Part shown: positions 2,060 to 58,040 of the stretch, piece after piece | How positions within the stretch are numbered: the stretch's first letter is position 1 | Layout: each line of letters begins with the position of its first letter | Assembly: GCA_965203905.1 (NCBI GenBank) | Contig: CBDBDQ010000005.1 | Span: 2,400,001 to 2,464,000, forward strand | Length of the DNA stretch: 64,000 nt | Source of the DNA: Spirochaetia bacterium | Lineage (GTDB): Bacteria > Spirochaetota > Spirochaetia > SZUA-6 > Bin103 | Reading direction: 5' to 3' | Translations under genes and position numbers: made by a program | The notes under the pieces: generated by a model | The model's input: the letters and a program-made list of their open reading frames with translations, nothing else | Told to the model about the DNA's origin: nothing | The model's database searches: none

Positions 2060-3250
2060 ATGACAGGGAGCAGCTCACCGAGGCCGAGTTCGAGCGGTGC
2101 GACGGGCGGCGGCCAGCCTGCGCTCGACGTCTTCGCACTGCGTGACAGCGTCGTCGCCGAGTACGAGCGCTTCGCCACGTCGTTCACGACGATCCACGCT
2201 CCGGACATTCGCCAGCAGGTTGCGGCCATCTACGCGGAGAGCCGCTACTGGCCCGAGCCGCTGATCCAGATCAACCCGAGCTACAAGCGCTCGAAGGATG
2301 TCAGCACCCTCGTTGCGGACCGAGTCCTACATCCCGGCTGCGCCGACATCTTCTGCGCGGACGGTCAGCCGCTGTCGCTCTACAAGCACCAGGAACAGGC
2401 GATCGCGCTCGCCGCCGAGGGGGAGAGCTTCGTGGTGACCACCGGGGTACCGGGTCCGGGAAGTCGCTCTGCTTCTTCATCCCCATCGTCAGCCACGTGC
2501 TGGCCGCACGGCGGAGGAGTGCGCAACGCCGCACCCATGCCATCGTCGTCTACCCGATGAACGCGCTCGCGAACTCGCAGATGGAGGAGCTGAGCAAGTT
2601 CATCGACCAGTGCCGGGGGGCCGGCCGGTCACGTTCGCCCGCTACACGGGGCAGGAGGACATGGACGAGCGGAGGCGGGTGGCAGACGACCCACCGGACA
2701 TTCTCCTGACCAACTTCATGATGCTTGAGCTGCTCATGACGCGGCAGGAGGAACTCGACCGCCAGGTCATCGGCAACTGTGCGGGCCTCGGCTTCCTCGT
2801 CCTGGACGAGCTCCACACGTACCGCGGCCGCCAGGGTGCCGACGTGGCGCTGCTGGTGCGCCGTGTCCGTGAGCGCCTCCAGCCGGAGAAGCTCCTGTGC
2901 ATCGGCACCTCGGCCACGATGGCGAGCGAAGGATCGATCAAGGACAAGAGTGCCGTGGTCGCAGGCGTGGCTTCGAAGCTCTTCGGGGTCCCCATCGCCG
3001 AAAGCAACGTGATCGCCGAAACGCTCGAACGCATCACGGTTCCGTCCGCCACCGCTGATTCGGTGAAGCCCCACCTTGGTACGGCCATCCCGCTGTAGCG
3101 CCCCAGTACACCGGACGGGACGCTTGCTCCGACGCCACCGTGGCATCGCCCGCTGAGCGCTTCGACAACGCGTTCCCTCGCTGGCGAGACCTCTTTGCCG
3201 CCGCCGAAAAGCAACGCGACGCCGTGCACAGGTCCATGGACGAACTCGTC
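2060..3250 (+). pseudogene. Large DEAD/DEAH-box SF2 helicase (defence-island type), frameshifted and truncated
   Basis: LYKHQEQAI, TG(T)GSGKS broken by an indel near 2445, YPMNALANSQ, second frameshift near 2615, RYTGQE, DILLTN, LDELHTYRG, GTSAT; stop at 3098; a probable further fragment (AFPRWRDLF) at 3140-3250. Confidence 0.85.
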
Positions 3251-3368
3251 TACACGCCTGACAGCCTCGTCAGCGCACGCGACCGGGGAGTGGGTGGCCC
3301 TCACCGGGGCTCAACGGAGACCCTGCAGGTCCGTCCGTGACGGGAACACTATCACCGAGGAGGGCAAC

Positions 3369-4613
3369 ATGAACGCATTCCGGCTCCAGGAAATCGACGT
3401 ACGCAACTACCGTTGTTTCGAGGAACTGAAGTTACGACTCGAGGAGGACACCACGGTTCTCTTCGCCGAGAACGGCGGCGGAAAGACCGCGTTGCTCAAG
3501 GCCATCGCGATGGGGCTCGCCGTGTTCCAACGCGGCGCACCGAGGCCCCTGAAACTCGACGCACGGCGTGATCCCACAATGCGTACGCTCGACGAGAAGG
3601 GGCGACACGAGCCGGTCGGCCCGTGCAGGATTACGTGGACTGCCGCCGTCGGCGAATCGGATTCCGTCACATGGTCAACGGCAGCTCATCCCGCGTCCGG
3701 CCGCACGACGACCCAGCGCCAACCGATTCTTGAGGCGCTGGAGGGAGTTCGAGTGCCTGGAAATCGGTGGCCGTTGTTCGCGTGGTACGGTGTTGATCGC
3801 TTGGTGCGGACCCGCGGACGCCGTCGCAAGGTCGAACGCACGGGAGACCGATGGGAAGCGTACGCCTCCGCGCTCGACCCGAACCTCGACGAAGCTTCGC
3901 TACTTCAGTGGCTCCAGGACGAGATGCTCGGGGACGTGGTCCGGAGGCAGCAGGAAGAACCGGAGCGCTTTCTCGATAAGGCCGTGATGGATGCAACGGT
4001 CCGCGCCACGCCGTGCGTCGCCAATGCCTGGTACGACCCGGTGGAGCGAATGCCAAGGGTGGGCTTCGTCGACGGGCATGTGACTACGTGGTCCGAGCTG
4101 TCCGACGGCTACCACGTATTCATCGCTCTGGTCGCCGACATCGCCCGGCGCGCGGTCATGCTCAACGAGTTCGACGGTGCCGCCGCACCCGCGCGAGTAG
4201 ATGGCGTTGTGCTCATCGACACGCTCGACCTCCACCTCCACCCACGTTGGCAGCGCGTGGCGCTTCCACATCTTCGCGAGGCATTCCCGCGACTGCAGAT
4301 AGTCGTCACTACCCATTCGCCGCAGCTACTGAGTAGCGTCGAGAACCGCCAAGTACGCCGACTCTTCGACGGAAAGCTCCAGGAGTACCCCGTGTTGGTT
4401 GAGGGCAGAGACACAAACGCCATCCTGCGCGAGTACATGCGCACCGAGGACCGCAGCGCGGAGGGTACACGCGCGTTGCGCGCGCTCCACGACTACATTG
4501 ACCAGGGTCGCCGCGAGGAAGCCGAGGATCTGTACAAGGATCTACTTGCTCGTTGGGGCGACCTCGATCCCGCCTTGATTCAAGCCCACGCGTTCATGGA
4601 CTTGGACGAATAA
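3369..4613 (+). CDS. ABC/SMC-like AAA ATPase, PtuA (Septu/retron effector)-like
   Basis: NYRCF, Walker A AENGGGKT, signature LSDGY, LVADIARR, Walker B region LIDTLDLHLHPRWQ, TTHSP; RBS GAGGAG before ATG 3369. Confidence 0.88.
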   Translation: MNAFRLQEIDVRNYRCFEELKLRLEEDTTVLFAENGGGKTALLKAIAMGLAVFQRGAPRPLKLDARRDPTMRTLDEKGRHEPVGPCRITWTAAVGESDSVTWSTAAHPASGRTTTQRQPILEALEGVRVPGNRWPLFAWYGVDRLVRTRGRRRKVERTGDRWEAYASALDPNLDEASLLQWLQDEMLGDVVRRQQEEPERFLDKAVMDATVRATPCVANAWYDPVERMPRVGFVDGHVTTWSELSDGYHVFIALVADIARRAVMLNEFDGAAAPARVDGVVLIDTLDLHLHPRWQRVALPHLREAFPRLQIVVTTHSPQLLSSVENRQVRRLFDGKLQEYPVLVEGRDTNAILREYMRTEDRSAEGTRALRALHDYIDQGRREEAEDLYKDLLARWGDLDPALIQAHAFMDLDE

Positions 4614-7929: not shown

Positions 7930-8024
7930 CCCGGCAGAGTCGCACGGCGGCTCGGGACTCGCACGGCGACTCCACGCGGCGCAGTTCGGATGACGCGGTC
8001 GACCATTCAAGAAAGGAGGTGTGC

Positions 8025-9602
8025 ATGACACACACGAGATGGCTATTGGTGCTCGCCGGCCTGCTGGTTGCCGGTCTGGCGTTCGGCGGAGCGGAGCAGG
8101 AGGGAGCCGCCGCCGAGGAGCGGCTGACGATAAGCTGGATGGGGCCGAACAACCGCGGCGTGCTGCTGCCGGCCGACAGCCCGACCGAGCTGTTCCTGGA
8201 AGAATACTTCAACGTCGAGTTGGAGCCGTGGACCGACGTGGACCTCTACCAGTCGGACCAGTGGAAGACGCGCATCGCGTCCGGCGACATTCCCGACTAC
8301 ATCAAGGCCGATGCGATCCGGTCCGGGCTGCACGACATCGGCGCGGTGCGGGTGCTGTCCGAGGACTTGCTGCGCCAGCACATGCCCAACTACACCAAGC
8401 TGGTCGACCAGATCGCCGGTCCCTACGGCTGGCAGACGGTGACCTCGGGCGGCGAGGTGGTCGGCATCCCGAGCGTCAACGTCGCCATCGCCTCGGGCGC
8501 CACCTTCGTCACCCGCCGTGACTGGTTGGAGGCGGTCGGCGAGCCGCTTCCGGAGAAGCGCATGCTCGGCTCTCCCTATTCCGACTACTCCAGCCTGGAG
8601 GACGTCGAGCGCCTGCTGCTGAAGTATCGCAACGAGGATCCTGACGGCAACGGCCAGAAGGACACCTACGGCCTGTCGGTCTACAAGAACAGCAACACCG
8701 TCAGCTTCAACGCCGGCGCCCAGTGGGCGTTCCCGAACGAGTTCGGCGCCCACGGCGTGCGTCTCGCCTCCTGGCAGGAGGTCGGCGGCGCGCTGCAGTA
8801 CTCGATGATTTCGGAGGGCTACAAGGAAGCCCTGGCGTTCCTGCACCGCTGGTACGAGGAGGAGATCATCGATCCCGAGTTCGTCACCGACAAGCGCTCG
8901 GAGCTGATCACCAAGTTCTCCAACGGCATCGTGGGCGCCTTCCAGGCATCACCGGCCTGGACCGGCCCGCGCCCGAGCGGTCCGACCGGCGTCCTGCTCA
9001 AGAACGTGCCGGACACCGAGCTGGTCTACTTCATCGCCTACGAGGGCCCCGGCGGCAAGGCCTCGGTCAACTTCAACCCGATCCTCGGCAACACCTCGAT
9101 CGGCGCCAACGCCTCCGACGCCGTGACCGAGAAGCTGCTCGCCATGCTCGACGAGATCCATACCAACATGGAGCTGTACGGGCGGGTCGCCTATGGTGAG
9201 GAGGGCGTCAACTACGAGTGGGACGAGGACGGGCTGCTGATCCAGAAGCCCGGTTTCGGCACCGGTGAGGAACGCACCAACCAGGGTTGGCAGTACTTCA
9301 CCATGTGGAACACCATCACGCCCGACATCTCGCGCTTCCGGCTGCCGCGCTGGCGCACCATTCCGCACACCATCGGCATCGACGCACCGAAGCTCGACAA
9401 CGGGTTCGCTCCCCAGTGGGACGAGGAGCTGCGCGCCGTTGCCAGCCAGCTCACCGAGGTGGAGAGCGAGTACTTCTTCCGCGCCATCATCGGCCAAGCG
9501 AACTTCACCTCCGACTGGGACGCCTACGTGGACGAGTGGACCCGCCGCGGCGGCGATGAGCTGACCAAAGAAGCCAACCGCCAGTGGCAGGACTCGATGT
9601 AA
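8025..9602 (+). CDS. Carbohydrate ABC transporter extracellular solute-binding protein (LplA-like)
   Basis: Strong RBS AAAGGAGGT; hydrophobic signal peptide ending AFG; IASGDIPD, RRDWLE, DPDGNGQKDTYG, WDAYVDEW. Confidence 0.92.
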   Translation: MTHTRWLLVLAGLLVAGLAFGGAEQEGAAAEERLTISWMGPNNRGVLLPADSPTELFLEEYFNVELEPWTDVDLYQSDQWKTRIASGDIPDYIKADAIRSGLHDIGAVRVLSEDLLRQHMPNYTKLVDQIAGPYGWQTVTSGGEVVGIPSVNVAIASGATFVTRRDWLEAVGEPLPEKRMLGSPYSDYSSLEDVERLLLKYRNEDPDGNGQKDTYGLSVYKNSNTVSFNAGAQWAFPNEFGAHGVRLASWQEVGGALQYSMISEGYKEALAFLHRWYEEEIIDPEFVTDKRSELITKFSNGIVGAFQASPAWTGPRPSGPTGVLLKNVPDTELVYFIAYEGPGGKASVNFNPILGNTSIGANASDAVTEKLLAMLDEIHTNMELYGRVAYGEEGVNYEWDEDGLLIQKPGFGTGEERTNQGWQYFTMWNTITPDISRFRLPRWRTIPHTIGIDAPKLDNGFAPQWDEELRAVASQLTEVESEYFFRAIIGQANFTSDWDAYVDEWTRRGGDELTKEANRQWQDSM

Positions 9603-18455: not shown

Positions 18456-19859
18456 TCAGTACCGTATATCGACAAACATAGCCATTCGTCCCGGACAGGG
18501 ATACCCGTATTTGTCTTTGTGAGGATTCAGACGGGTAGTGCGCTTCTTACGCCTGAAGCGTTTGCCACAATAAGTACACTCATAGATGTGATGTGGGCCG
18601 CTTCCTGATCGCGCTGCGCGTGTTCGGCGGCGCTGCCGCGTCGGTGCTGCCGCTCGAGCCGCGGCGGGCGGAACTGCGATCGGGTTCCGCGGACTCAACT
18701 CCACGACGTAACGCGGGACAAAGCTCCGTCCAGTAATCTTTGCGCCTTCAATACGGTCAATGCGGTAGCTCCGGTGCTCTCCATCAGAGTTTCGGATTGC
18801 GTGCAGGACGATATTTCCATCGCGGGTGCGTCGTAGAGAATACGGTTCAATCCGTCGAACTGAGCTCTGGTAGCGTAAGTCGACGCACACATGGTTGGCG
18901 GCCGCAAAGCGAATGATCTCCAGGAATGACCGTGCGGCCGTGGCCACCGGCAGCCGTAGTGTACGCTCTCTTAGGACGGTTTCTCCCGCCGCTATCTCGT
19001 AGACTTCCGGTTCGCTAGGGGCAACGCCAGTGTGCAGCCATGCAAAGAAATCAGGGAGCTCGTTCCAGAACGATTCGACCGGCAGTAGAGCCTGAAGCTG
19101 ATGACCCAGCATGGATCCCAAGAACCTTCAAGATCGCCTTTACGTCTCTCTAGTTCCGTAAGCGTTGGAATAAGGATGTCGCGATGCCTACACTTTTGGT
19201 GTAGTACATCGTGCAGTACAGCGGGCTGCGGGCGTGCCTCGGTATTCCGATAGAGATTGACCACATCGTAGAGATCGCGCGGCCGTGCACGGTCACCCAA
19301 TGCGCGGACCTTTGGCCGAAGGCTTCCTCATAGGCGTAGCAACGGACTCTGATGCCCTCTTCGGGCGCATCGCTGTAGTCGTGAAAGATGACTCGTTGCA
19401 GCGGTGGGAGTACAAGAATTTCGTCAGCCGTAAGATCCAGTTTGATACGCGGGAGACCACCTGACCGCGGAGCGATCGGCCCTTGATAGCTGAGTTGCCC
19501 TGACAGGAGAACGTGCCACGCGTGTTTTCGAAGATTTCGAAGTCCTGCAAGTCTGCCGGAATCTCGATGCCAGTATGATCGTATATCCATTCTCCGATTT
19601 CGCGGAATACGGGACGAAGGAACTCCTGATCGACGTGGGAAGGTTCGGTGAGTGTAAAATCAAGATCTTCGGAGAACCGATAGGTTTCAAAATAGCATTT
19701 CTTGAGACATGTCCCGCCCTTGAAGATCCAGGTATCAGTAAGTGCGGGATGCTGATGGATGCCGGCAAGAACCCAGCCAAGTACATAGTCCTTTTCGATG
19801 ATCTGAGGGCGTAACCCAAGCGTATTCGCTGCACTGAGGATTTCGCCGCGGCCAATCAT
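18456..19859 (-). pseudogene. abiEii: AbiEii/AbiGii nucleotidyltransferase toxin fused to WYL domain and Zn-finger-like tail; three frameshifts
   Basis: IEKDY, FKGGTCLKKCY, RFSEDLDF (19859-19500); IKLDL..Y (19500-19315); RARPRDLYD (19315-19115); RRIEPYSL..RSYRIDRI and CTYC..H..C (19115-18456). Confidence 0.85.
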
Positions 19860-19870
19860 CGAGAAGCCAC

Positions 19871-20656
19871 CTACGTCCAGCTCTCAGGTACCAGAAGGCG
19901 CCAACGGGAAACAAGACGACCGCAGGTGAGCGCTCGATCAAGCTTGGCGTTACCTTGGGTCAGATGCGCCCGGCACGCCTGGACAAGTCTAGCAGTGTTT
20001 GCTCTCCGTTCTGCCAGGAATCCCAGACGCTTGAATACGGCGCCATTGCCGAGCATCCCTGCATAATCTATTAGCTTGGCATCATCTCTGTCGTTGCGGC
20101 TGAAGTAGCTCACAACGCAGTCAGATACGTGCTGGATACCGGCTCCGACTTCCGGATCGTCGAGCATGTCGATGATGGTACGGTGAACGTCGGAAATCGC
20201 GATTCGAGTTCTTCCACGCCAGACGTTCTTGGTGCCGAAGATATTGGTCTCTTGAACGTGTTTCAGCGTGAAGTGTGCTCCGTGGCGTAGCAGCCTCTTC
20301 GCACGAACGGCCCGCGCCGTCATTACGACGATGTCACGAAAGATCTGGTCCGTCAGGCTCCAGTGTTCCGCTGCAGCGCGTCCGCCGATGTAGGCAGGTC
20401 CGAAGAGAACCGGCACCAGCACCCAGGGGTCATCGAGAACCAATTCGCTGGCCAGCGAATCAAGGCCGACGGGCGCGTAGCAGCCCGGTCCAACGCGTCG
20501 CAGCCAGCCCTGCCGAAACCACCGGGAGAGTAGCTTCGATGCGTCGGAACGGCTCACGTCCAGTGCTCGTTCGGCATCATCGATTTGGATGATATCGCCG
20601 GCTGCCCGAACAACGGCAGCCAGTCTAAGGCGACCCTTCGGTATGGGGGGGCTCAT
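19871..20656 (-). CDS. abiEi: AbiEi type IV TA antitoxin / transcriptional regulator
   Basis: N-terminal wHTH (GWLRRVGPGCY), YIGGRAAAEHWSLTDQI, ISDVHRTIID, KRLGFL; directly upstream of abiEii. Confidence 0.9.
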   Translation of the reverse strand: MSPPIPKGRLRLAAVVRAAGDIIQIDDAERALDVSRSDASKLLSRWFRQGWLRRVGPGCYAPVGLDSLASELVLDDPWVLVPVLFGPAYIGGRAAAEHWSLTDQIFRDIVVMTARAVRAKRLLRHGAHFTLKHVQETNIFGTKNVWRGRTRIAISDVHRTIIDMLDDPEVGAGIQHVSDCVVSYFSRNDRDDAKLIDYAGMLGNGAVFKRLGFLAERRANTARLVQACRAHLTQGNAKLDRALTCGRLVSRWRLLVPESWT

Positions 20657-20754
20657 GATTCAGTATCGGGACTCCAATAATTCGCTGTTTTCAGGAAGTT
20701 TAGCAAGCATAATATACACTATCGAGACCTCGTAAGGTACTTAAGTAAAGCATT

Positions 20755-20775
20755 AATTCGCATTTTTTGCGAATT
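20755..20775. promoter_or_regulatory. Inverted repeat in the AT-rich abiE promoter region, candidate AbiEi operator
   Basis: AATTCGCA-TTTTT-TGCGAATT; a second AATTCGC half-site at 20679; minus-strand TATATT -10-like box at 20711-20716. Confidence 0.45.
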
Positions 20776-20894
20776 CGAGCAGCGAAGATATCTAATCTCG
20801 AAGACGAACCGAGGTGCCGCCGGAGACGCGCGGGTTCAGACTTGGGTCATCGTCACCGGGACTGGAGCGGAGATCGCTCCGCTGGTTGTTTGGG

Positions 20895-22283
20895 CTATAC
20901 GACCGCGGATGGCAGAGTGCGCTCGATCTCGTCGATGCGGTAGCCGAAGCCGCTCCCGGTCACGGACTTCAGGTCGACGTGTCCGTCACGCCGGCGGTAG
21001 AGGCCGGGATGGACCCGCGCTTCGGCGGCTGAGGCGGCCGGGTAGAACTGCATGGCGTTGGTCTCCACGCCCATGATGGTGCCGGCGTGTGCCGCCAGTT
21101 GCAGGTGCGGGACCTGCGCCAGCATCGGATTGGTCAGGTCCTGCACCATCAGGGTCATGCCGTGGTGGCGCGCCCAGCACAGGCTGAGGATGGCGCCGGT
21201 CTGCGTCTTGCAGGTCTTCAGGGCCACCCCGCTCCAACCGAGCGAGCGGCCGAGGCGTACCAGCGTCCAGTCGTGGGCGCTCTCATCCATGAACAACGGC
21301 TTGCGTGCCGCCACCGAGCGCACGTCGATCTGATGCTGCTCCAGGTCGTAGGGGAACGGCTGCTCGACGTAGAGGATCGCGGCGTAGGTGCGCGGCTCGT
21401 GGTCGCGCAGTCGGTCCAGTATCCGGTTCACGTACTCGGGCTCGGTCACCGTACAGTTGAAGTCGGCGGACAGCCACAGCACCGGATGCCGTGCCGCGAT
21501 GGCACCTACCGCCGCCAGGCGCCGGTAGTCCCACTCGGCGTCGTCGCCGCGCAGCTTCACCTTGAGCGCCTGCAGTCCGTCGCTGCGGATCCAGTCCTCC
21601 AGCAACACCGGGTAGCCGTCGTCCGGCTCGTCCCCGGTGAGCTCGTCCGGCGAGAGGGGGTCGAGGCCCCCGACCAGGTGCCATGCCATCAGCCGGCGGC
21701 GCGGCGGCACCAGGTAGTCGCGGGGGTAGCGGCCGGCAAAGGCGGGGTCGCCCAGGAGCGCGGCCAGGTCGCTGCCCAGGTGCTCGGGGCCGTAGGTGTC
21801 GTAGGTGGGACAATCCAGCAGCTTGCCGTAGGCGTCATGGGTAGCCAGATCGAACGCCGAGGCACATACCAGGGCGGCGAGCCAGGGGATCGCGGCGGCG
21901 CCCGGCCGGGTGCGGTTGGCCGCCGCCAGCAGCTCCGGCAGGCGCCGCTCGACGAAGCGCTGGCCGATCTCCAGCGGATGACCCGGCTCCGCCGCATCCG
22001 GCCAGGCCCGCGCGATCGCCTCGCTGAGACCGCACAGCGCCTGCAGCCGTTCTGCGTAAGGGATGCCGCTCGGCCAGACCCATTGCACGCTCAGCGGCGT
22101 CTCGCCCCAGCCCACGACGGTTTCGGACCCGTCTCCGGCGCGGCTCAACTCGACGCTGGCGCGCGCGCAGATGACCGACGTGGTGACCTCCGGACCGAAC
22201 TTCAGCGGCACGCGGGTGGTGACCGGCAGATAGTACAGGTGGGTGGCACCTACCGCCGCGCTGCACGAATGGTGAGTGGGCAT
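20895..22283 (-). CDS. Mandelate racemase/muconate lactonizing (enolase superfamily) enzyme
   Basis: KVK motif, metal ligands in ADFN, YVEQP and MDES, ALKTCK. Confidence 0.85.
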   Translation of the reverse strand: MPTHHSCSAAVGATHLYYLPVTTRVPLKFGPEVTTSVICARASVELSRAGDGSETVVGWGETPLSVQWVWPSGIPYAERLQALCGLSEAIARAWPDAAEPGHPLEIGQRFVERRLPELLAAANRTRPGAAAIPWLAALVCASAFDLATHDAYGKLLDCPTYDTYGPEHLGSDLAALLGDPAFAGRYPRDYLVPPRRRLMAWHLVGGLDPLSPDELTGDEPDDGYPVLLEDWIRSDGLQALKVKLRGDDAEWDYRRLAAVGAIAARHPVLWLSADFNCTVTEPEYVNRILDRLRDHEPRTYAAILYVEQPFPYDLEQHQIDVRSVAARKPLFMDESAHDWTLVRLGRSLGWSGVALKTCKTQTGAILSLCWARHHGMTLMVQDLTNPMLAQVPHLQLAAHAGTIMGVETNAMQFYPAASAAEARVHPGLYRRRDGHVDLKSVTGSGFGYRIDEIERTLPSAVV

Positions 22284-22397
22284 CGCGCTCGGAGTATAGG
22301 GGGCCAACGGCCGGCGGACAACGAGCGGCCGGCGCGGCGAAGCCGGTGGGCGGTACCCCGGCGGCACTCCCGGCACCGGGCAGTGCACCCGCGGGCG

Positions 22398-22530
22398 AAA
22401 AAAAGGCCCCTGGGTAAAGGAGGTGAAACCCCAGGGGCCAATGGATGGTAGTCGGCGTAGCTTGCGGGTGTGCTCAGTTCCCTCAAGCTTTGCAAGCCAA
22501 ACGCTTGCAGACAGGAGGTTTCACCGACGT
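22398..22530 (-). ncRNA. Putative structured sRNA, copy 1, ending in an anti-SD-loop terminator
   Basis: 10-bp stem 22405-22414/22430-22439, loop GUUUCACCUCCUUUA, U7 tail; internal hairpins 22459-22489 and 22491-22509; second CCUCCU at 22513-22518; 5' end inferred. Confidence 0.55.
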
Positions 22531-22535
22531 TATAA

Positions 22536-22563
22536 TCGTCGGCTTCCGGCACTCACAGCTTTA
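22536..22563 (-). promoter_or_regulatory. Sigma28 (FliA)-like promoter for sRNA copy 1
   Basis: Minus strand TAAA-N16-GCCGACGA versus consensus TAAA-N15/16-GCCGATAA; upstream A/T tracts. Confidence 0.4.
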
Positions 22564-22632
22564 ATCATTTTCGAAGAAATCGGAATTTTTTTGACTCCTG
22601 TCGAGCGAGATTCCTGTCGAGAGCGCGGGCAT

Positions 22633-22742
22633 AAAAAAAGGCCCCTGGGTAAAGGAGGTAAAACCCCAGGGGCCAGTGGATGGCCATCAGAACATCTGGG
22701 GGTAAAATCACACGCGCGTGTTCGGAATCCCCCAGTGTCTAT
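22633..22742 (-). ncRNA. Putative structured sRNA, copy 2, ending in an anti-SD-loop terminator
   Basis: 10-bp stem 22640-22649/22665-22674, loop GUUUUACCUCCUUUA, U7 tail; 5' hairpin CTGGGGG (22696-22702) / CCCCCAG (22729-22735) with inner ACACGCGCGTGT; 5' end inferred. Confidence 0.55.
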
Positions 22743-22749
22743 AAGTAAC

Positions 22750-22775
22750 AACAACAGTCGAGTTGGAAGGTTACA
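22750..22775 (-). promoter_or_regulatory. ECF-sigma-like promoter for sRNA copy 2
   Basis: Minus strand TGTAAC-N17-GTT, matching the generic ECF AAC...GTT pattern; T-tract upstream. Confidence 0.3.
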
Positions 22776-22809
22776 TGGGGTACCAAAAAAATGTGAAAGG
22801 AGACCACGC

Positions 22810-23466
22810 CTACCGCGCCGCACGGTAGCGCTCCAGATGGCGCCGCACCGCGCTGCGCTGCTCGGCGGCCACCGAGGCCAGTTCCACCACTTCCTCGATC
22901 GTGATCAGTGCGGCGGTGGCAAACCCGAACTCCGCCTGCAGCTCGGCCAGGGCGCTGGCCGACCCGCTGCCGCGCTCCATGCGATCGACCGCAATCAGCA
23001 GGCCGACGATCCGCGCCGCCGATCGGCTGCGCAGCAGCTCCACCGCTTCCCGCTTGGCGCCGCCATCGGTAACTACGTCGTCTACAATCAATACGCGGTC
23101 GTCGGCTTCCGGTTCCCGCCCCACCAGGGTCCCCGCCTCGCCGTGGGTCTTGGCCTCCTTGCGGTTGAAGGTGTAGCTCAGCGGGCGTCCCAGCATCCGC
23201 GAGGCGCTGATGGCGGTCGCGACGGCCAGCGGGATCGCCTTGTACGCGGGACCGAACAGGCAGCTCGGCGGGGCGCCGGCAAAGTGCTCGGCGATGGCGC
23301 CCGCGTACAGGTCCGCCAGTTGGGCGATCTGCTCCCCGTGATGGATCGCCCCCAGATTGACGAAGTAGGGCGAGGAACGCCCGCTCTTGGTGGTGAACCG
23401 GCCGAAACGCACGGCGCCGGTGTCCACCAGCAACTGCGCGAGGCGTTGCTTGTCGGGGGTGGTCAT
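22810..23466 (-). CDS. pyrE: Orotate phosphoribosyltransferase
   Basis: FGRFTTKSGRSSPYF, FGPAYKAIPL, FNRKEAKTHGE, PRPP loop IVDDVVTDG. Confidence 0.96.
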   Translation of the reverse strand: MTTPDKQRLAQLLVDTGAVRFGRFTTKSGRSSPYFVNLGAIHHGEQIAQLADLYAGAIAEHFAGAPPSCLFGPAYKAIPLAVATAISASRMLGRPLSYTFNRKEAKTHGEAGTLVGREPEADDRVLIVDDVVTDGGAKREAVELLRSRSAARIVGLLIAVDRMERGSGSASALAELQAEFGFATAALITIEEVVELASVAAEQRSAVRRHLERYRAAR

Positions 23467-23515
23467 GGCCCCCGCAGTGTAGCGGATCGCGCGCCGGTTC
23501 GGGTACGTTGCCCCC

Positions 23516-24001
23516 ATGGCACGCAAGCGGATCTACCTGGCGAGCCCGTACGGATTCTCGAAGCAGCAGAAGGCGTTGCTGCTGCCGCCCATAGTGGCGC
23601 GGCTGGAGGCGCTGGGCGCCGAGGTGTGGGAGCCGTTCGCGCGCAACAACTGGGACATTCCGCGCCCGGGATGGGCCTACCGCGTCGCTCAACGCGACCT
23701 CGGCGACGTGCTCACCTGTGACGCCATCTTCGCGGTCGTGAACGGCACGCCGCCGGATGAAGGCGTGATGGTGGAGCTGGGCGTGGCCATTGCGCGGCGG
23801 ATTCCCACGTTCCTGTTCCGTGACGACCTGCGCCGCTGCACCGACAGCGAACACTATCCGCTCAACCTGATGCTGTTCGCGGGGCTGCCAGAGCAGGGTT
23901 GGAAGGACTACTACTACACCGACCTGGACCATCTGGCACGGTCCGACAAGGCCCTGGCTCCCTGGCTGGCGGCCGGGGACACGGGCGCGGCTGCGGATTG
24001 A
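23516..24001 (+). CDS. Nucleoside 2-deoxyribosyltransferase family protein
   Basis: IYLASP, PDEGVMVELG, LNLML. Confidence 0.9.
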   Translation: MARKRIYLASPYGFSKQQKALLLPPIVARLEALGAEVWEPFARNNWDIPRPGWAYRVAQRDLGDVLTCDAIFAVVNGTPPDEGVMVELGVAIARRIPTFLFRDDLRRCTDSEHYPLNLMLFAGLPEQGWKDYYYTDLDHLARSDKALAPWLAAGDTGAAAD

Positions 24002-33582: not shown

Positions 33583-34140
33583 ATGGACTTGGTGCAGACA
33601 GTCGAAGAGTTCCGCCGGGACGGTTTCGTCAGGATTCCCGGGCTGCTGTCGGAGGCCGAGTTGCGCGCACTCCGGCACGACACGCAGCGCATCATCGACG
33701 GCGGCTACGAGGAGGTGGCGAACCGGTCCGACTACCGGACCGCGCCCGATCCCGGTAGCGGGGAGGAGGTCTTCAACCGGGTGCAGTTCGTGTTTCCGCT
33801 GGCCGCCATCGAGCCCAACCCGCTGCTCGCGCTGCTCGGCCATCCTCGGGTGCAGGCGCTGGCGCACGCGCTGCTGGGCGATGACGCGCTGTGCAACGCG
33901 GAGGCGCTGGTGTTCAAGCTGCCGGGCAACGGCTCCGAGGTGCCGGTCCACGCCGACTGCGACCCCGCCGACCGGCGCACCTCCGACGCCCACCTGGGAT
34001 TCAACGTCGACTTCTACCTCGACGACGCGACCCTGGAGAACGGCTGCCTGCTGGCCGCTGCGGGCAGCCACCGGGCGCGCCACTCCCGGGAGAACCCCGT
34101 GATGCTCAGAACCAAGTTGACCGCGTCGCCGAACTGGTAG
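33583..34140 (+). pseudogene. Phytanoyl-CoA dioxygenase family protein, C-terminally truncated
   Basis: FRRDGF, HxD (HAD), LDDATLENGCL..GSH; ends before the distal Fe-ligand His. Confidence 0.65.
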
Positions 34141-56188: not shown

Positions 56189-57418
56189 ATGAGTCCCACA
56201 GCTTCAATACATCCCGCCCGCATTGAGCGTCTGCGCGTGCGAAACTTTCGCGCCCTGCACGACGTCGAATTCCAGAGCATGCGACCACTTACCGCACTAC
56301 TCGGCCCCAACGGAAGTGGCAAGTCCACGGTATTCGATGTTTTTGCTTTTCTCGCTGACTGCTTCGAATCCGGCCTGAGACGTGCGTGGGACCGGCGCGG
56401 ACGTGCCCGCGAGATCAAGTCACGCGGGTCGGACGGTCCGGTAACGATCGAGATCAAGTACCGCGAACGCCCGGGGCGTCCTTTGATTACCTACCATCTG
56501 GCGGTCGACGAGCAGGATGGCAGACCGAGGGTGAAAGAAGAGTGGTTGAGCTGGCGCCGTGGCCGATGGGGGAAACCATTTCGGTTTCTGGAGTACCGCG
56601 GCGGGATGGGCCGAGCGGTCAGTGGGGACGAGCCCGATGAGCAGGCCGAACGGATGGAGATACCCCTCAATGCGCCCGATCTTCTGGCCGTCAACGCTCT
56701 CGGCCAGTTCGCGGACCATCCACGTATCGCGGCCCTCCGTAGTTTCATTACCGGCTGGTACGTATCGTACCTGTCTGCGGACAGCGCGCGTGGACAACCC
56801 GAAGCGGGGCCGCAGGAACGGCTCAGCCGATCCGGAGACAACTTGGCCAACGTGATCCAGTATCTGGCCGAACAGCATCAGGATCGACTGGAGCAGATTT
56901 TCAGCGTTCTGCGCAACAGGGTGCCGCGTGTCGAGAGAGTGCTGGCCGACACCATGCCGGACGGCCGCCTGCTGCTGCAGATCAAGGACGCTCCGTTCAG
57001 CCATCCGGTGATGGCTCGCTTTGCCTCCGACGGGACGTTGAAGATGCTGGCGTACCTCGTCTTGCTGTACGACCCCGAGCCGCCACCTTTCATTGGAATC
57101 GAGGAGCCAGAGAATTTCCTCCATCCGCGACTGCTGCCGGAACTGGCCGAGGAGTGCCGGGCTGCGGCCGAGCGCACCCAACTGCTCGTCACAACACATT
57201 CGCCGTTTTTTCTCAACGGACTGAGACCTGACGAAGTGCGGATTCTGTGGCGCGACGAACAAGGGTACACGCATGGCGAGCGGGCCGCCGACCGCCGCGG
57301 GGTTTCCGAATTCACCACGGAAGGCGCCTTGCTGGGCGACCTCTGGATGGAGGGCCACCTCGGGGTGGGCGATCCGCTGGTAAACCAGGGAATCCCTTGG
57401 CCCGCCGATAGTCGATGA
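56189..57418 (+). CDS. AAA_21-type ABC ATPase (defence-associated)
   Basis: [35 protein letters not shown]. Confidence 0.92.
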
Positions 57419-57421
57419 CAG

Positions 57422-58040
57422 ATGCCGGCGCGACACCTGGAGTTTCTGATCGAAGAGCCCTCGATGGAGACTTTTTCTCAGTGCGCTGTTGCCGATCATT
57501 CTGCCGGGAGAGTGTACTTTCGCGTGCCACGTTTTTCCGTACAAGGCCAAACCGGCCGCAAAGCTGCGGGACCGACTGCGAGCGTACGCGCGCTGGTTGC
57601 CCCATGACTGGAGGCTCGTGCTTCTCGTCGATCGTGACCAAGCGGACTGTCACTGCCTGAAGCAGCAACTTGAAGACGTGGTTCGTGATGCCAACCTTCA
57701 GCTCCCATCGCCTGCTGGCGGCGTAGCTTGGCAGGTGGTAATCCGTATTGCCATTGAAGAATTGGAGGCATGGTACTTCGGGAGTTGGGACGCGGTGCGT
57801 GCGGCATACCCGAGAGTCCCCGCCACCGTGCCGCAGCGAGCACAATACCGCGACCCCGATGCGGTCTCCGGTGGCACGTGGGAAGCGTTCGAACGCATTC
57901 TTCAGCGCGTGGGTTACTTCTCTACGGGAATACGGAAGATAGAAGCGGCCCGAGCAATCGCTCCGCACCTGGATCCGCGGAAGAGCCGTTCCCGGAGCTT
58001 CGCGCGATTCCACGATGCCGTGTTGCAGGCTACGAACTGA
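57422..58040 (+). pseudogene. DUF4276 (TOPRIM-like) protein with a +1 frameshift
   Basis: LEFLIEEPSME, extra T in T5 run 57472-57476, then LLP..LVDRD..EELEAWY..SRSF; the indel could be a sequencing error. Confidence 0.78.

Follow-up and report, generated by a model that had tools for sequence, protein, structure and literature searches.

Two tandem candidate sRNA genes displaying an anti-Shine-Dalgarno-like loop and their Spirochaetia family

Since two near-identical hairpin modules lie within a single intergenic region of the Spirochaetia DNA analysed here (a stretch of 64,000 nucleotides, hereafter the window), the question arises whether they are genes of regulatory RNAs, signals belonging to the adjacent genes or simply a repeat. 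A repeat search returned a 51-nt unit that occurs twice, at 22398-22448 and 22633-22683, with 96% identity and a start-to-start spacing of 235, as the original prediction had described. The space holding both copies is AT-richer than its surroundings, as had been claimed (GC 0.505-0.51 vs 0.68-0.73 in the flanks), but it is about 526 bp long instead of 420 bp, bounded by the stop of a pyrE-like gene (22810) and by the ATG with which the following minus-strand gene begins (22283). When a 35-nt stem-loop pattern was searched with up to 3 mismatches, exactly two matches were found in the 64-kb window and none in 100 shuffles.

Read on the minus strand, each module consists of CCATCCAYTGG, a perfect 10-bp stem with a 15-nt loop and a run of seven T, in the predicted order in both copies. 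In the downstream copy (sRNA-1) the arms are at 22430-22439 and 22405-22414, the loop at 22415-22429 and the T run at 22398-22404 (plus-strand coordinates); in the upstream copy (sRNA-2) the corresponding positions are 22665-22674 and 22640-22649, 22650-22664 and 22633-22639. The stem contains 9 G-C pairs and is directly followed by the U-run, as in a Rho-independent terminator, whereas the 15-nt loop departs from the short, unconserved loop of a plain terminator. A terminator scan, which takes only loops of 3-8 nt, did not report the hairpins. Both loops contain ACCTCCTTT with the core ACCUCCUUU, which resembles what we take to be the 3' tail of 16S rRNA, i.e. the ribosomal anti-Shine-Dalgarno sequence. 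No 16S gene was found within the 64-kb window by Rfam scan.

The distribution of the hairpin was determined in 185,579 species genomes (one per species) with a pattern that fixed 13 loop bases and 3 closing pairs. The scan gave 107 matches at 104 loci, 74 of which passed a strict filter for the hairpin plus T run. After removal of one weak case (L100) and addition of nine by eye (carrying one mismatch or truncated at the end of a contig), the final member set comprised 82 hairpins at 79 loci in 78 assemblies, and 73 of these loci were in records with spirochaete titles. The remaining 25 matches are close to the approximately 17 estimated by chance for 18 fixed bases in 2 x 596 Gb at equal base frequencies. 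In the 82 hairpins (78 distinct), 93.2% of the stem cells were paired, and double changes were observed in all 7 stem pairs left free by the search pattern. The number of double-change cells was 153, compared to 47.8 +/- 6.7 in shuffled alignments (0 of 500 shuffles reached 153), and the covariation score was 0.506 vs a maximum of 0.244 with the partners slid. In the tail, three columns had T conserved at 90% or more. The relatives with stem covariation that the original prediction had called for were thus found.

Conservation of the loop itself is partly circular, because the pattern fixed 13 of its 15 bases and relatives with other loops are invisible to the scan. The 60 nt upstream of the stem were not constrained by the search, and CCTCC occurred there in 33 of 83 distinct sequences (shuffles 3.3 +/- 1.7, maximum 10), while GGAGG occurred in 0 of 83. 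This recurrence in the RNA body is an independent sign of the importance of CCUCC. In the relatives, the second CCUCC usually lies within the loop of a small hairpin, as in the fold of L064. A second CCTCCT had also been claimed for sRNA-1 and is present there (22518-22513, minus strand), but it is carried by only one of the four orthologous copies and is therefore not conserved.

No match to Rfam 15 at the gathering threshold was obtained in the whole window, and among 20 representative related loci the only matches were rRNA and tRNA in L080, away from the hairpin. The sequences form an apparently undescribed Spirochaetia sRNA family that is absent from Rfam and present in about 80 species, and the existence of the genes and of the family is well supported. 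To our knowledge, very few regulatory RNAs are known from spirochaetes outside Borrelia; for the free-living Spirochaeta, Alkalispirochaeta and Salinispira groups none were found in the literature searched.

The closeness of two near-identical copies might also suggest a dispersed repeat or a mobile-element remnant (REP- or MITE-like) with no regulatory role. This reading has hardly any chance of being right, as the window holds only two copies, both in one intergenic region, and 77 of the 78 member assemblies carry a single locus (one hairpin or a tandem pair), which keeps its syntenic position across species at 73-83% identity. Apart from five weak matches scoring 10.5-13.6 bits (E 1.4-9.1) and one antisense to L044, a search of 85 sources (312 kb) with a covariance model of the hairpin returned only the pattern sites and no divergent extra copies. 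Plasmid and phage collections gave no blastn match to the modules, and the repeat search detected no terminal inverted repeats at the two modules beyond the stem itself.

Promoter-like motifs were found upstream of both hairpins on the minus strand. That of sRNA-2, TGTAACCTTCCAACTCGACTGTTGTT at 22750-22775, combines a -35-like TGTAAC with a -10-like GTTGTT and is a perfect version of TGTWACY-N13-GTKGTT, which has this single match in the 64 kb with up to 1 mismatch. In the fetched loci together with the window (371 kb), a hairpin follows the strict motif in 48/48 occurrences, and 64 of 68 occurrences of a loose form in the fetched DNA sit at a hairpin. Conversely, the motif precedes 63 of the 83 hairpins with enough upstream sequence; the other 20 lack it as written, with near-variants recognizable by eye in some. 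No copies with other loops were recovered from the fetched DNA by a promoter-anchored search. A palindromic operator was considered as another reading of the motif and rejected, since the palindrome (TGTAACT-N6-AGTTACA) is confined to one subgroup (L035, L041 and L094) and is not family-wide.

A TGTAAC -35 element has been reported for the SigX and ECF16 sigma factors. The -35 TGTAAC(C) agrees with this SigX/ECF16 consensus, while the -10-like GTKGTT departs from the CGWC and CGAA reported for the -10 element, which is placed about 16-17 nt further downstream in ECF promoters, so that the motif resembles an ECF-sigma-type promoter in its -35 element only. Sigma-factor Pfam families were present in 0 of 114 flanking ORFs (E up to 1e-5) and in 0 of 51 window ORFs (E up to 1e-6).

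The downstream copy is preceded by a different motif. TAAA-N14-17-GCCGAYRW matches the window nowhere but at 22536-22563 on the minus strand, where the sequence is TAAAGCTGTGAGTGCCGGAAGCCGACGA. In 4/4 downstream copies (window, L073, L077 and L079) such a motif precedes the hairpin by 126-134 nt, with a perfect GCCGATAA in L077. The sigma-28 consensus in the literature reads TAAAGTTT-n11-GCCGATAA; compared with its TAAA-N15-GCCGATAA, the window sequence TAAA-N16-GCCGACGA has a spacer longer by 1 nt and two mismatches in the -10 element. The putative promoter of sRNA-1 is sigma-28-like and may be of the flagellar FliA/WhiG type. The occurrence of two promoter types, not mentioned in the original prediction, is the strongest evidence that the copies are independent genes.

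Transcription of both genes would start and end at positions taken from these motifs. The predicted sRNA-2 transcript extends over about 108 nt (22633-22741, minus strand, 5' end placed from the promoter position) and begins with a stem-loop at its 5' end, which is followed by a single-stranded stretch containing CCATCC (22683-22678), the terminator hairpin and U7 (22639-22633). Folding yields -46 kcal/mol (z -4.3) and is predicted to leave the 15-nt loop unpaired, and in the orthologues from 7 loci the outer 5' stem and the hairpin are kept, as is CCATC in 8/8 sequences. If transcription starts at the sigma-28-like promoter, sRNA-1 would measure about 133 nt (22398-22530, minus strand) and comprise a structured body, the single-stranded CCATCC (22448-22443), the terminator hairpin and U7 (22404-22398). 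Its fold has -57.8 kcal/mol (z -4.9), again with the loop predicted unpaired; an alignment of 4 sequences predicted 33 pairs and retained CCATC in 4/4. Both lengths agree with the expected size of approximately 110-130 nt, and the RNAs predicted for motif-bearing relatives range from 57 to 128 nt with a median of 86. In sRNA-1, TGAAACC at 22523-22517 is a degenerate TGTAAC motif and creates its non-conserved second CCTCCT.

The pyrE-like phosphoribosyltransferase gene upstream of sRNA-2 (22810-23526, minus strand; Pfam Pribosyltran, E 4.4e-11) is an ORF whose read-through would also stop at the sRNA-2 hairpin. Downstream lies an enolase-superfamily gene (20895-22283, minus strand; Pfam MR_MLE_C, E 1.6e-13) with a promoter-like TTGTCC-17-TATACT at 22321-22293. 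Since this site ends 10 nt before the ATG, the gene is probably leaderless and outside the sRNA unit. Both sRNA copies are kept in the syntenic loci L077 and L079 (83% and 80% identity), where pyrE is absent, and L046 and L053 carry the upstream-type copy only. In other clades the gene is located between PFK and PGI (11 and 8 loci) or beside other genes.

These neighbourhoods bear on the idea that the hairpins are cis-acting terminators or attenuators, serving the 3' end of pyrE or control of the enolase-like gene, with an incidental loop sequence. A stem followed by U7 is a canonical terminator, and the upstream hairpin is positioned about 135 nt past the pyrE stop on the same strand, where it would end read-through. 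Nevertheless, such a role alone is very unlikely: the hairpins have conserved promoter motifs of their own, the pair persists without pyrE, the neighbours vary by clade, and several loci have a downstream ORF annotated in the opposite orientation (such as the PGI ORFs of L024, L035 and L038). The downstream gene in the window has its promoter-like site beside its own ATG, and a 15-nt loop exceeds the 3-8 nt range of the terminator scan. The possibility that only the pyrE terminator had been seen, which the original prediction itself had raised, is countered by the minus-strand promoters, by the pair without pyrE and by the unrelated neighbours elsewhere.

The opposite strand has its own candidates. 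On the plus strand the loop shows AAAGGAGGT, followed in each copy by an ATG at a distance of 17-21 nt, and two sigma-70-like sites were scored, so that a CsrA-type sponge with a GGA/AGGAGG loop, or a small ORF using the loop as Shine-Dalgarno sequence and the ATG in GGATGG, might be imagined. We regard a plus-strand product as highly improbable. The T-run reads as an A-run ahead of the hairpin on this strand and gives no terminator, and both conserved promoter motifs belong to the minus strand. By reading, the ORFs that follow the ATG on the plus strand share neither length nor sequence between the two copies and L073, where there are only a few codons, and the TATAAT site is not kept in L073. 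The changes in the stem compensate one another and indicate an RNA structure rather than a coding sequence. For this reason, and because they are not conserved between the copies or in L073, small ORFs were rejected as candidates for both strands.

All computational checks put forward in the original prediction turned out in its favour. Taken together, the two modules are probably paralogous trans-acting sRNA genes of a family that is widely distributed in Spirochaetia but missing from Rfam, and their anti-Shine-Dalgarno loops would mask strong Shine-Dalgarno sites. Each minus-strand unit would be self-contained, its promoter being followed by a structured body that varies and then by a Rho-independent terminator. 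The unusually large 15-nt loop of the terminator would display ACCUCCUUU, which copies the anti-Shine-Dalgarno sequence of the ribosome. The upstream copy would be driven by TGTWACY-N13-GTKGTT, the signature promoter of the family. The downstream copy may have arisen by tandem duplication within a subclade, losing a good signature promoter and using the sigma-28-type promoter instead. With different promoters, the two siblings would answer different signals. The exposed loop is predicted to pair with extended AAAGGAGGU-type Shine-Dalgarno sites on a limited set of mRNAs, and this pairing would block 30S binding and lower translation, as described for other anti-Shine-Dalgarno sRNAs.

A candidate target site in the window is the Shine-Dalgarno sequence AAAGGAGGT with the ATG (8025) of a 525-aa ORF, at 8012-8027 on the plus strand. 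It gave the best predicted loop duplex, -17.8 kcal/mol, among the 83 candidate starts scanned, and serves as one example to which no statistic is attached. A 9-nt anti-Shine-Dalgarno sequence is generic. Besides the antisense of the two loops, AAAGGAGGT occurs in the window at the 8012 site only. Extended Shine-Dalgarno sites are rare in the window, and specificity of the sRNAs would follow from this rarity. The ORF has no Pfam family at E up to 0.01; by eye, its first residues are signal-peptide-like.

The same loop could act by titration of a protein instead of by pairing with mRNA, its U-rich/CCUCC sequence binding an RNA chaperone or a factor that recognizes the 16S 3' tail. Such a decoy would account for the 13 invariant bases of the loop, U-rich flanks included, beside stems that vary freely, bearing in mind that loop conservation is partly circular. 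A 9-nt anti-Shine-Dalgarno sequence alone would provide little target specificity, and the conserved CCAUCC linker is left unexplained by simple masking of Shine-Dalgarno sites. In contrast, the unconstrained parts of the RNAs repeat exactly CCUCC(UUU) in those 33 of 83 sequences, as pairing with Shine-Dalgarno sites predicts, and the gene neighbourhoods show no linked candidate protein. Known sRNAs with such loops are described as acting on ribosome-binding sites (PMC4615179, PMC4438229). The decoy is considered unlikely.

A broader variant, which we consider quite unlikely, holds that the sRNAs are regulated mimics of the 16S rRNA 3' tail that reprogramme initiation globally under sigma control rather than acting on a few targets. 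With the ECF-type or flagellar sigma factor active, sRNA levels would rise and the strongest Shine-Dalgarno sites of the whole transcriptome would be contested between sRNAs and ribosomes, and translation would shift to weak-Shine-Dalgarno and leaderless mRNAs, such as that of the apparently leaderless neighbour gene.

Its spread over about 80 species, its signature promoter and its clear covariation make the family suitable for a covariance model and for submission to Rfam. TGTWACY-N13-GTKGTT is a candidate regulon marker that points to an alternative sigma factor or an activator, and the siblings, as judged from their motifs, appear to have come under the control of two sigma factors, ECF-like in one case and flagellar in the other. 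The predictions are directly testable, since one carrier is the cultured type strain Alkalispirochaeta alkalica DSM 8900 (L056).

Small RNAs controlled by alternative sigma factors include the sigma-E-dependent MicA, RybB and MicL of enterobacteria and the sigma-28-dependent sRNAs of Campylobacter, which are transcribed from an alternative sigma promoter alone and act as the repressing arm within stress or flagellar regulons. The seeds of these sRNAs are 5'-terminal and target-specific, whereas here anti-Shine-Dalgarno loops are displayed and the sigma factors are proposed from motifs. The best sub-threshold Rfam match was to suhB/mmgR (alpha-r8, RF00519), with 17.1 and 14.8 bits vs the gathering threshold of 41 (E 0.74 and 2.8). 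What aligns is a small stem together with CCUCC and the U-tail; membership in this family was rejected because of the scores and because the match bypasses the 10-bp stem.

The cuckoo RNAs of Alphaproteobacteria (alpha-r14/RSs0680/NfeR1) are described as modular, with C/U-rich anti-Shine-Dalgarno-like hairpin loops and strongly variable stems; they often have several paralogues, some of them in tandem, and some are under RpoHI/HII stress-sigma control (PMC4615179). Two motif-bearing hairpin loops are likewise a feature of many relatives of the window RNAs. The motif is ACCUCCUUU in Spirochaetia compared to the reported cuckoo motif CCUCCUCCC, which the window loops, reading ACCTCCTTT, do not contain; CCTCCTCCC occurs in the window only at 33761, at an unrelated site. 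Each window copy has one motif-bearing hairpin, the terminator, whereas the cuckoo RNAs are reported with two to four adjacent ones (a second CCTCC is found in the 33 of 83 relatives noted above), and phylum and promoters are different. The cuckoo/ar14 type named in the original prediction is therefore apt for the presumed mode of action and inapt for family membership, as the loop motif differs and no Rfam match was obtained.

The CiaR-dependent csRNAs of streptococci are reported to share promoter and terminator with low overall sequence similarity, to number two to six siblings per genome and to have a conserved CCUCCU anti-Shine-Dalgarno stretch together with an anti-start-codon stretch (PMC4438229). 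Their anti-Shine-Dalgarno sequence is in the first loop, whereas here it is in the terminator loop, in another phylum and with no sequence similarity; the CiaR repeat NTTAAG-N5-TTTAAG was absent from the window even when 1 mismatch was tolerated. Promoter, anti-Shine-Dalgarno sequence and terminator likewise unite the Spirochaetia family. In addition, the clade of the window has a conserved CCAUCC, which contains CAU, 5' of the anti-Shine-Dalgarno sequence: the CCATC linker is present in 12/12 copies of this clade, approximately 20 nt from the anti-Shine-Dalgarno sequence across the 5' arm of the stem, and may be a counterpart of the anti-start-codon stretch of the csRNAs.

Repeat search of the window revealed a 51-nt unit in two copies, at 22398-22448 and 22633-22683, with 96% identity and a spacing of 235 bp. 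On the minus strand each copy consisted of CCATCCAYTGG, a perfect 10-bp stem, a 15-nt loop with ACCTCCTTT and seven T, so the paired near-identical stem-loop modules of the original prediction were borne out. Pattern search for the 35-nt stem-loop gave exactly two sites in the 64 kb at up to 3 mismatches (0/100 shuffles). The sRNA region had a GC content of about 0.51 versus about 0.70 in its surroundings and was bordered by a pyrE-like gene (stop 22810, minus strand) and an enolase-superfamily gene (ATG 22283, minus strand). The latter, downstream of the sRNAs, is probably leaderless, because no Shine-Dalgarno (SD) sequence was found before its ATG and its own promoter-like TTGTCC-17-TATACT (22321-22293, minus strand) ends 10 nt before the ATG. 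The window contains no 16S gene and hence no sequence for comparing the loop with the organism's own anti-SD tail.

The pattern used to scan a species-representative genome collection fixed 13 bases of the loop and the three G-C pairs that close it; the remaining seven pairs of the stem and all other positions stayed free. This gave 107 matches at 104 loci (handles such as L073 denote the fetched loci). A strict automatic filter, asking for no fewer than 3 additional perfect stem pairs and for 5 or more T within the next 10 bases, was passed by 74 of the 107. From these L100 (Mucilaginibacter; 4 pairs, weak tail) was removed, and nine hairpins with one internal mismatch, another tail or a contig-end cut were added by eye (L014, L044, L045, L055, L070, L071, L076, L087 and L088). 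The final set comprised 82 hairpins at 79 loci in 78 assemblies, with a single locus per assembly except for the one holding both L028 and L044. Spirochaete titles accounted for 73/79 loci (Spirochaetia, Spirochaetales, Spirochaetaceae, Alkalispirochaeta, Salinispira, Spirochaeta and one Treponema MAG), and the type strain Alkalispirochaeta alkalica DSM 8900 was among the carriers; the remainder were three Rickettsiales MAGs, one Cloacimonadia MAG and two records titled only 'bacterium'. The other 25 matches were spread across unrelated phyla without the hairpin; by our own estimate about 17 matches would arise by chance (assuming 18 fixed bases, equal base frequencies and 2 x 596 Gb). Two of the 25, L015 and L007, came from spirochaete records and resembled variants, L015 with the promoter motif. 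No plasmid or phage match was found, and a covariance-model search of the fetched loci gave no extra copies. Judged by these matches, the two window modules belong to a family and are not a local oddity.

Some members departed from the standard form. The L044 hairpin (1989-2041) had no T-run behind it and was followed by a further CACCTCCTTTT, so that its RNA would carry two or more consecutive anti-SD motifs; L028, in the same assembly, was a standard copy. The Rickettsiales MAGs (L025, L080 and L097) shared the loop on an unrelated stem (GGAGAC/GTCTC in L080 and L097), located at about position 2000 in L025 and L080 and about 300 in L097. A sigma-70-like promoter was seen by eye directly before the hairpin in L080 and L097, giving a predicted RNA of only about 45 nt, and in L025 and L080 the hairpin lay between a Ham1-family gene and rpsB. 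These hairpins could reflect convergent evolution or a distant relative.

An ungapped alignment was made of 80 complete hairpins from the loci and the two from the window (78 distinct rows). Standard pairs occupied 93.2% of the cells of the 10-bp stem, and the covariation expected of relatives was found, with double-sided changes at all seven stem pairs left free by the search. Double-change cells numbered 153, compared with 47.8 +/- 6.7 in shuffles (0/500 reached 153), and the covariation score was 0.506 versus at most 0.244 with slid partners. The search pattern itself fixed the three inner pairs and 13 bases of the loop, whose invariance is therefore uninformative on conservation; as the relatives were found by the loop pattern, the loop itself is uninformative on CCUCC function. 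The search put no constraint on the 60 nt preceding the stem, and there CCTCC occurred in 33/83 distinct sequences (shuffles 3.3 +/- 1.7, maximum 10 in 500) and CCTCCTTT in 24/83, while GGAGG occurred in 0/83. The second CCUCC motif lay within the loop of a small hairpin in predicted folds (L064). The 15-nt loop was predicted to be open in both window RNAs, at -46 kcal/mol (z -4.3) and -57.8 kcal/mol (z -4.9).

Alignment of upstream regions showed a conserved motif, TGTWACY-N13-GTKGTT, at a distance of 55-125 nt upstream of the hairpin and in many cases with (T)AGACAC after it. On both strands of the 371 kb of loci and the window the strict motif occurred 48 times, with a hairpin downstream in 48/48; for a looser motif the figure was 64/68. 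It preceded 63 of the 83 hairpins with enough upstream sequence and as written was absent from 20/83, two further hairpins being unscored because their upstream sequence was too short. Predicted RNA lengths were 57-128 nt (median 86). The sole window occurrence, at 22775-22750 (minus strand), precedes the upstream copy. PMC12153292, PMC8315932 and PMC3420878 give -35 TGTAAC and -10 CGWC for B. subtilis SigX and tGTAACc-N16-CGAA for ECF16 sigma factors. The TGTAAC -35 is alike, but the -10-like GTKGTT differs from CGWC and CGAA, and for this reason the promoter is called ECF-like and no more. Pfam sigma-factor families were matched by 0/114 flanking ORFs at E <=1e-5 and 0/51 window ORFs at E <=1e-6. 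In L035, L041 and L094 only, the motif lay within a palindrome, TGTAACT-N6-AGTTACA, about 95 nt before the hairpin; this palindrome is a possible operator site for a regulator that binds as a dimer.

In the downstream copy (sRNA-1, 22398-22530, minus strand) the signature motif was degenerate (TGAAACC ... GTTTGG), a change generating its second CCUCCU. That element, noted in the original prediction, was present in only 1/4 orthologues. Twenty-odd bases upstream of the degenerate motif lay TAAAGCTGTGAGTGCCGGAAGCCGACGA, the only sigma-28-type pattern match in the window. This motif was found 126-134 nt before the hairpin in 4/4 downstream copies (window, L073, L077 and L079), with a perfect GCCGATAA in L077; its spacer is one base longer than in the flagellar consensus TAAAGTTT-n11-GCCGATAA given in PMC2859248 and PMC8325347. 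The two copies thus appear to be differently wired, and each hairpin copy is a predicted gene with its own promoter. Transcription, sigma-factor identities and repression are all points that we infer.

The window locus was syntenic with L073 (82% identity over 2.3 kb), L077 (83%), L079 (80%) and L053 and L046 (73-80%). Only the upstream-type copy was found in L046 and L053, indicating that the putative sigma-28-type copy arose by duplication inside a subclade. The explanation that the hairpins are simply the pyrE terminator was ruled out, since L077 and L079 retain both copies though without pyrE. Neighbours in other clades were phosphofructokinase (11 loci), a Transketolase_C/lipoyl/FabH-like ORF (11), glucose-6-phosphate isomerase (8), response-regulator/Hpt genes (8) and Sua5 (4). 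A response-regulator/Hpt or hybrid histidine-kinase gene adjoined the sRNA gene of the Alkalispirochaeta-type clade (L011, L023, L033, L040, L050, L051, L056 and L058; Hpt only in L076), a possible hint of regulatory coupling.

Elsewhere in the window, a low-GC island at 18456-20656 (minus strand; GC 0.455-0.65 over 20000-20900 versus about 0.70) encoded a WYL-domain protein, an AbiEii-type nucleotidyltransferase toxin and an AbiEi-like antitoxin. This island probably represents a type IV toxin-antitoxin or abortive-infection module gained by horizontal transfer. Two genes at 3195-4610 and 56189-58037 (both plus strand) encode ATPases with AAA_15/AAA_21 domains and, as candidate defence genes, resemble the OLD-family or abortive-infection type; one also matched DUF2813, and a DUF4276 gene lay behind the other.

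Cuckoo RNAs and csRNAs, which are described as masking SD sites, provide the analogy for a likely mechanism: the loop should pair with SD regions of mRNAs and would thereby block translation initiation. Its 9-nt complement AAAGGAGGT occurred three times in the window; two occurrences were the antisense of the loops, and the third was the SD of an ORF of 525 aa with its start at 8025, whose first residues are signal-peptide-like by eye. Among 83 candidate starts scanned, this SD gave the best predicted duplex with the loop (-17.8 kcal/mol). The rarity of AAAGGAGGT together with this duplex suggests selectivity for extended SDs, with one predicted example. Just 5' of the terminator stem, single-stranded CCAUC(C) was present in 12/12 copies of the window's clade (CCATCC at 22678-22683 and 22443-22448 in plus coordinates, one per copy), while the surrounding linker varied. 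As it includes CAU and would fall downstream of the SD on a target, a csRNA-like anti-start-codon contact is possible but unsupported.

The predicted novelty held against Rfam 15, in which no family matched the window or the related loci examined, the best sub-threshold match being suhB/mmgR at 17 bits versus a cut-off of 41. No such RNA in spirochaetes, anti-SD, CCUCCU and ACCUCCUU sRNAs included, was found in the literature searched (PMC8632094 among it; subscription journals and supplements aside). The family differs from cuckoo RNAs in lacking their defining motif CCUCCUCCC and from csRNAs in lacking their defining CiaR repeat. We rate the spirochaete RNAs as a family that is new, though its kind of regulator is known; it would work like cuckoo RNAs and csRNAs while being a member of neither.
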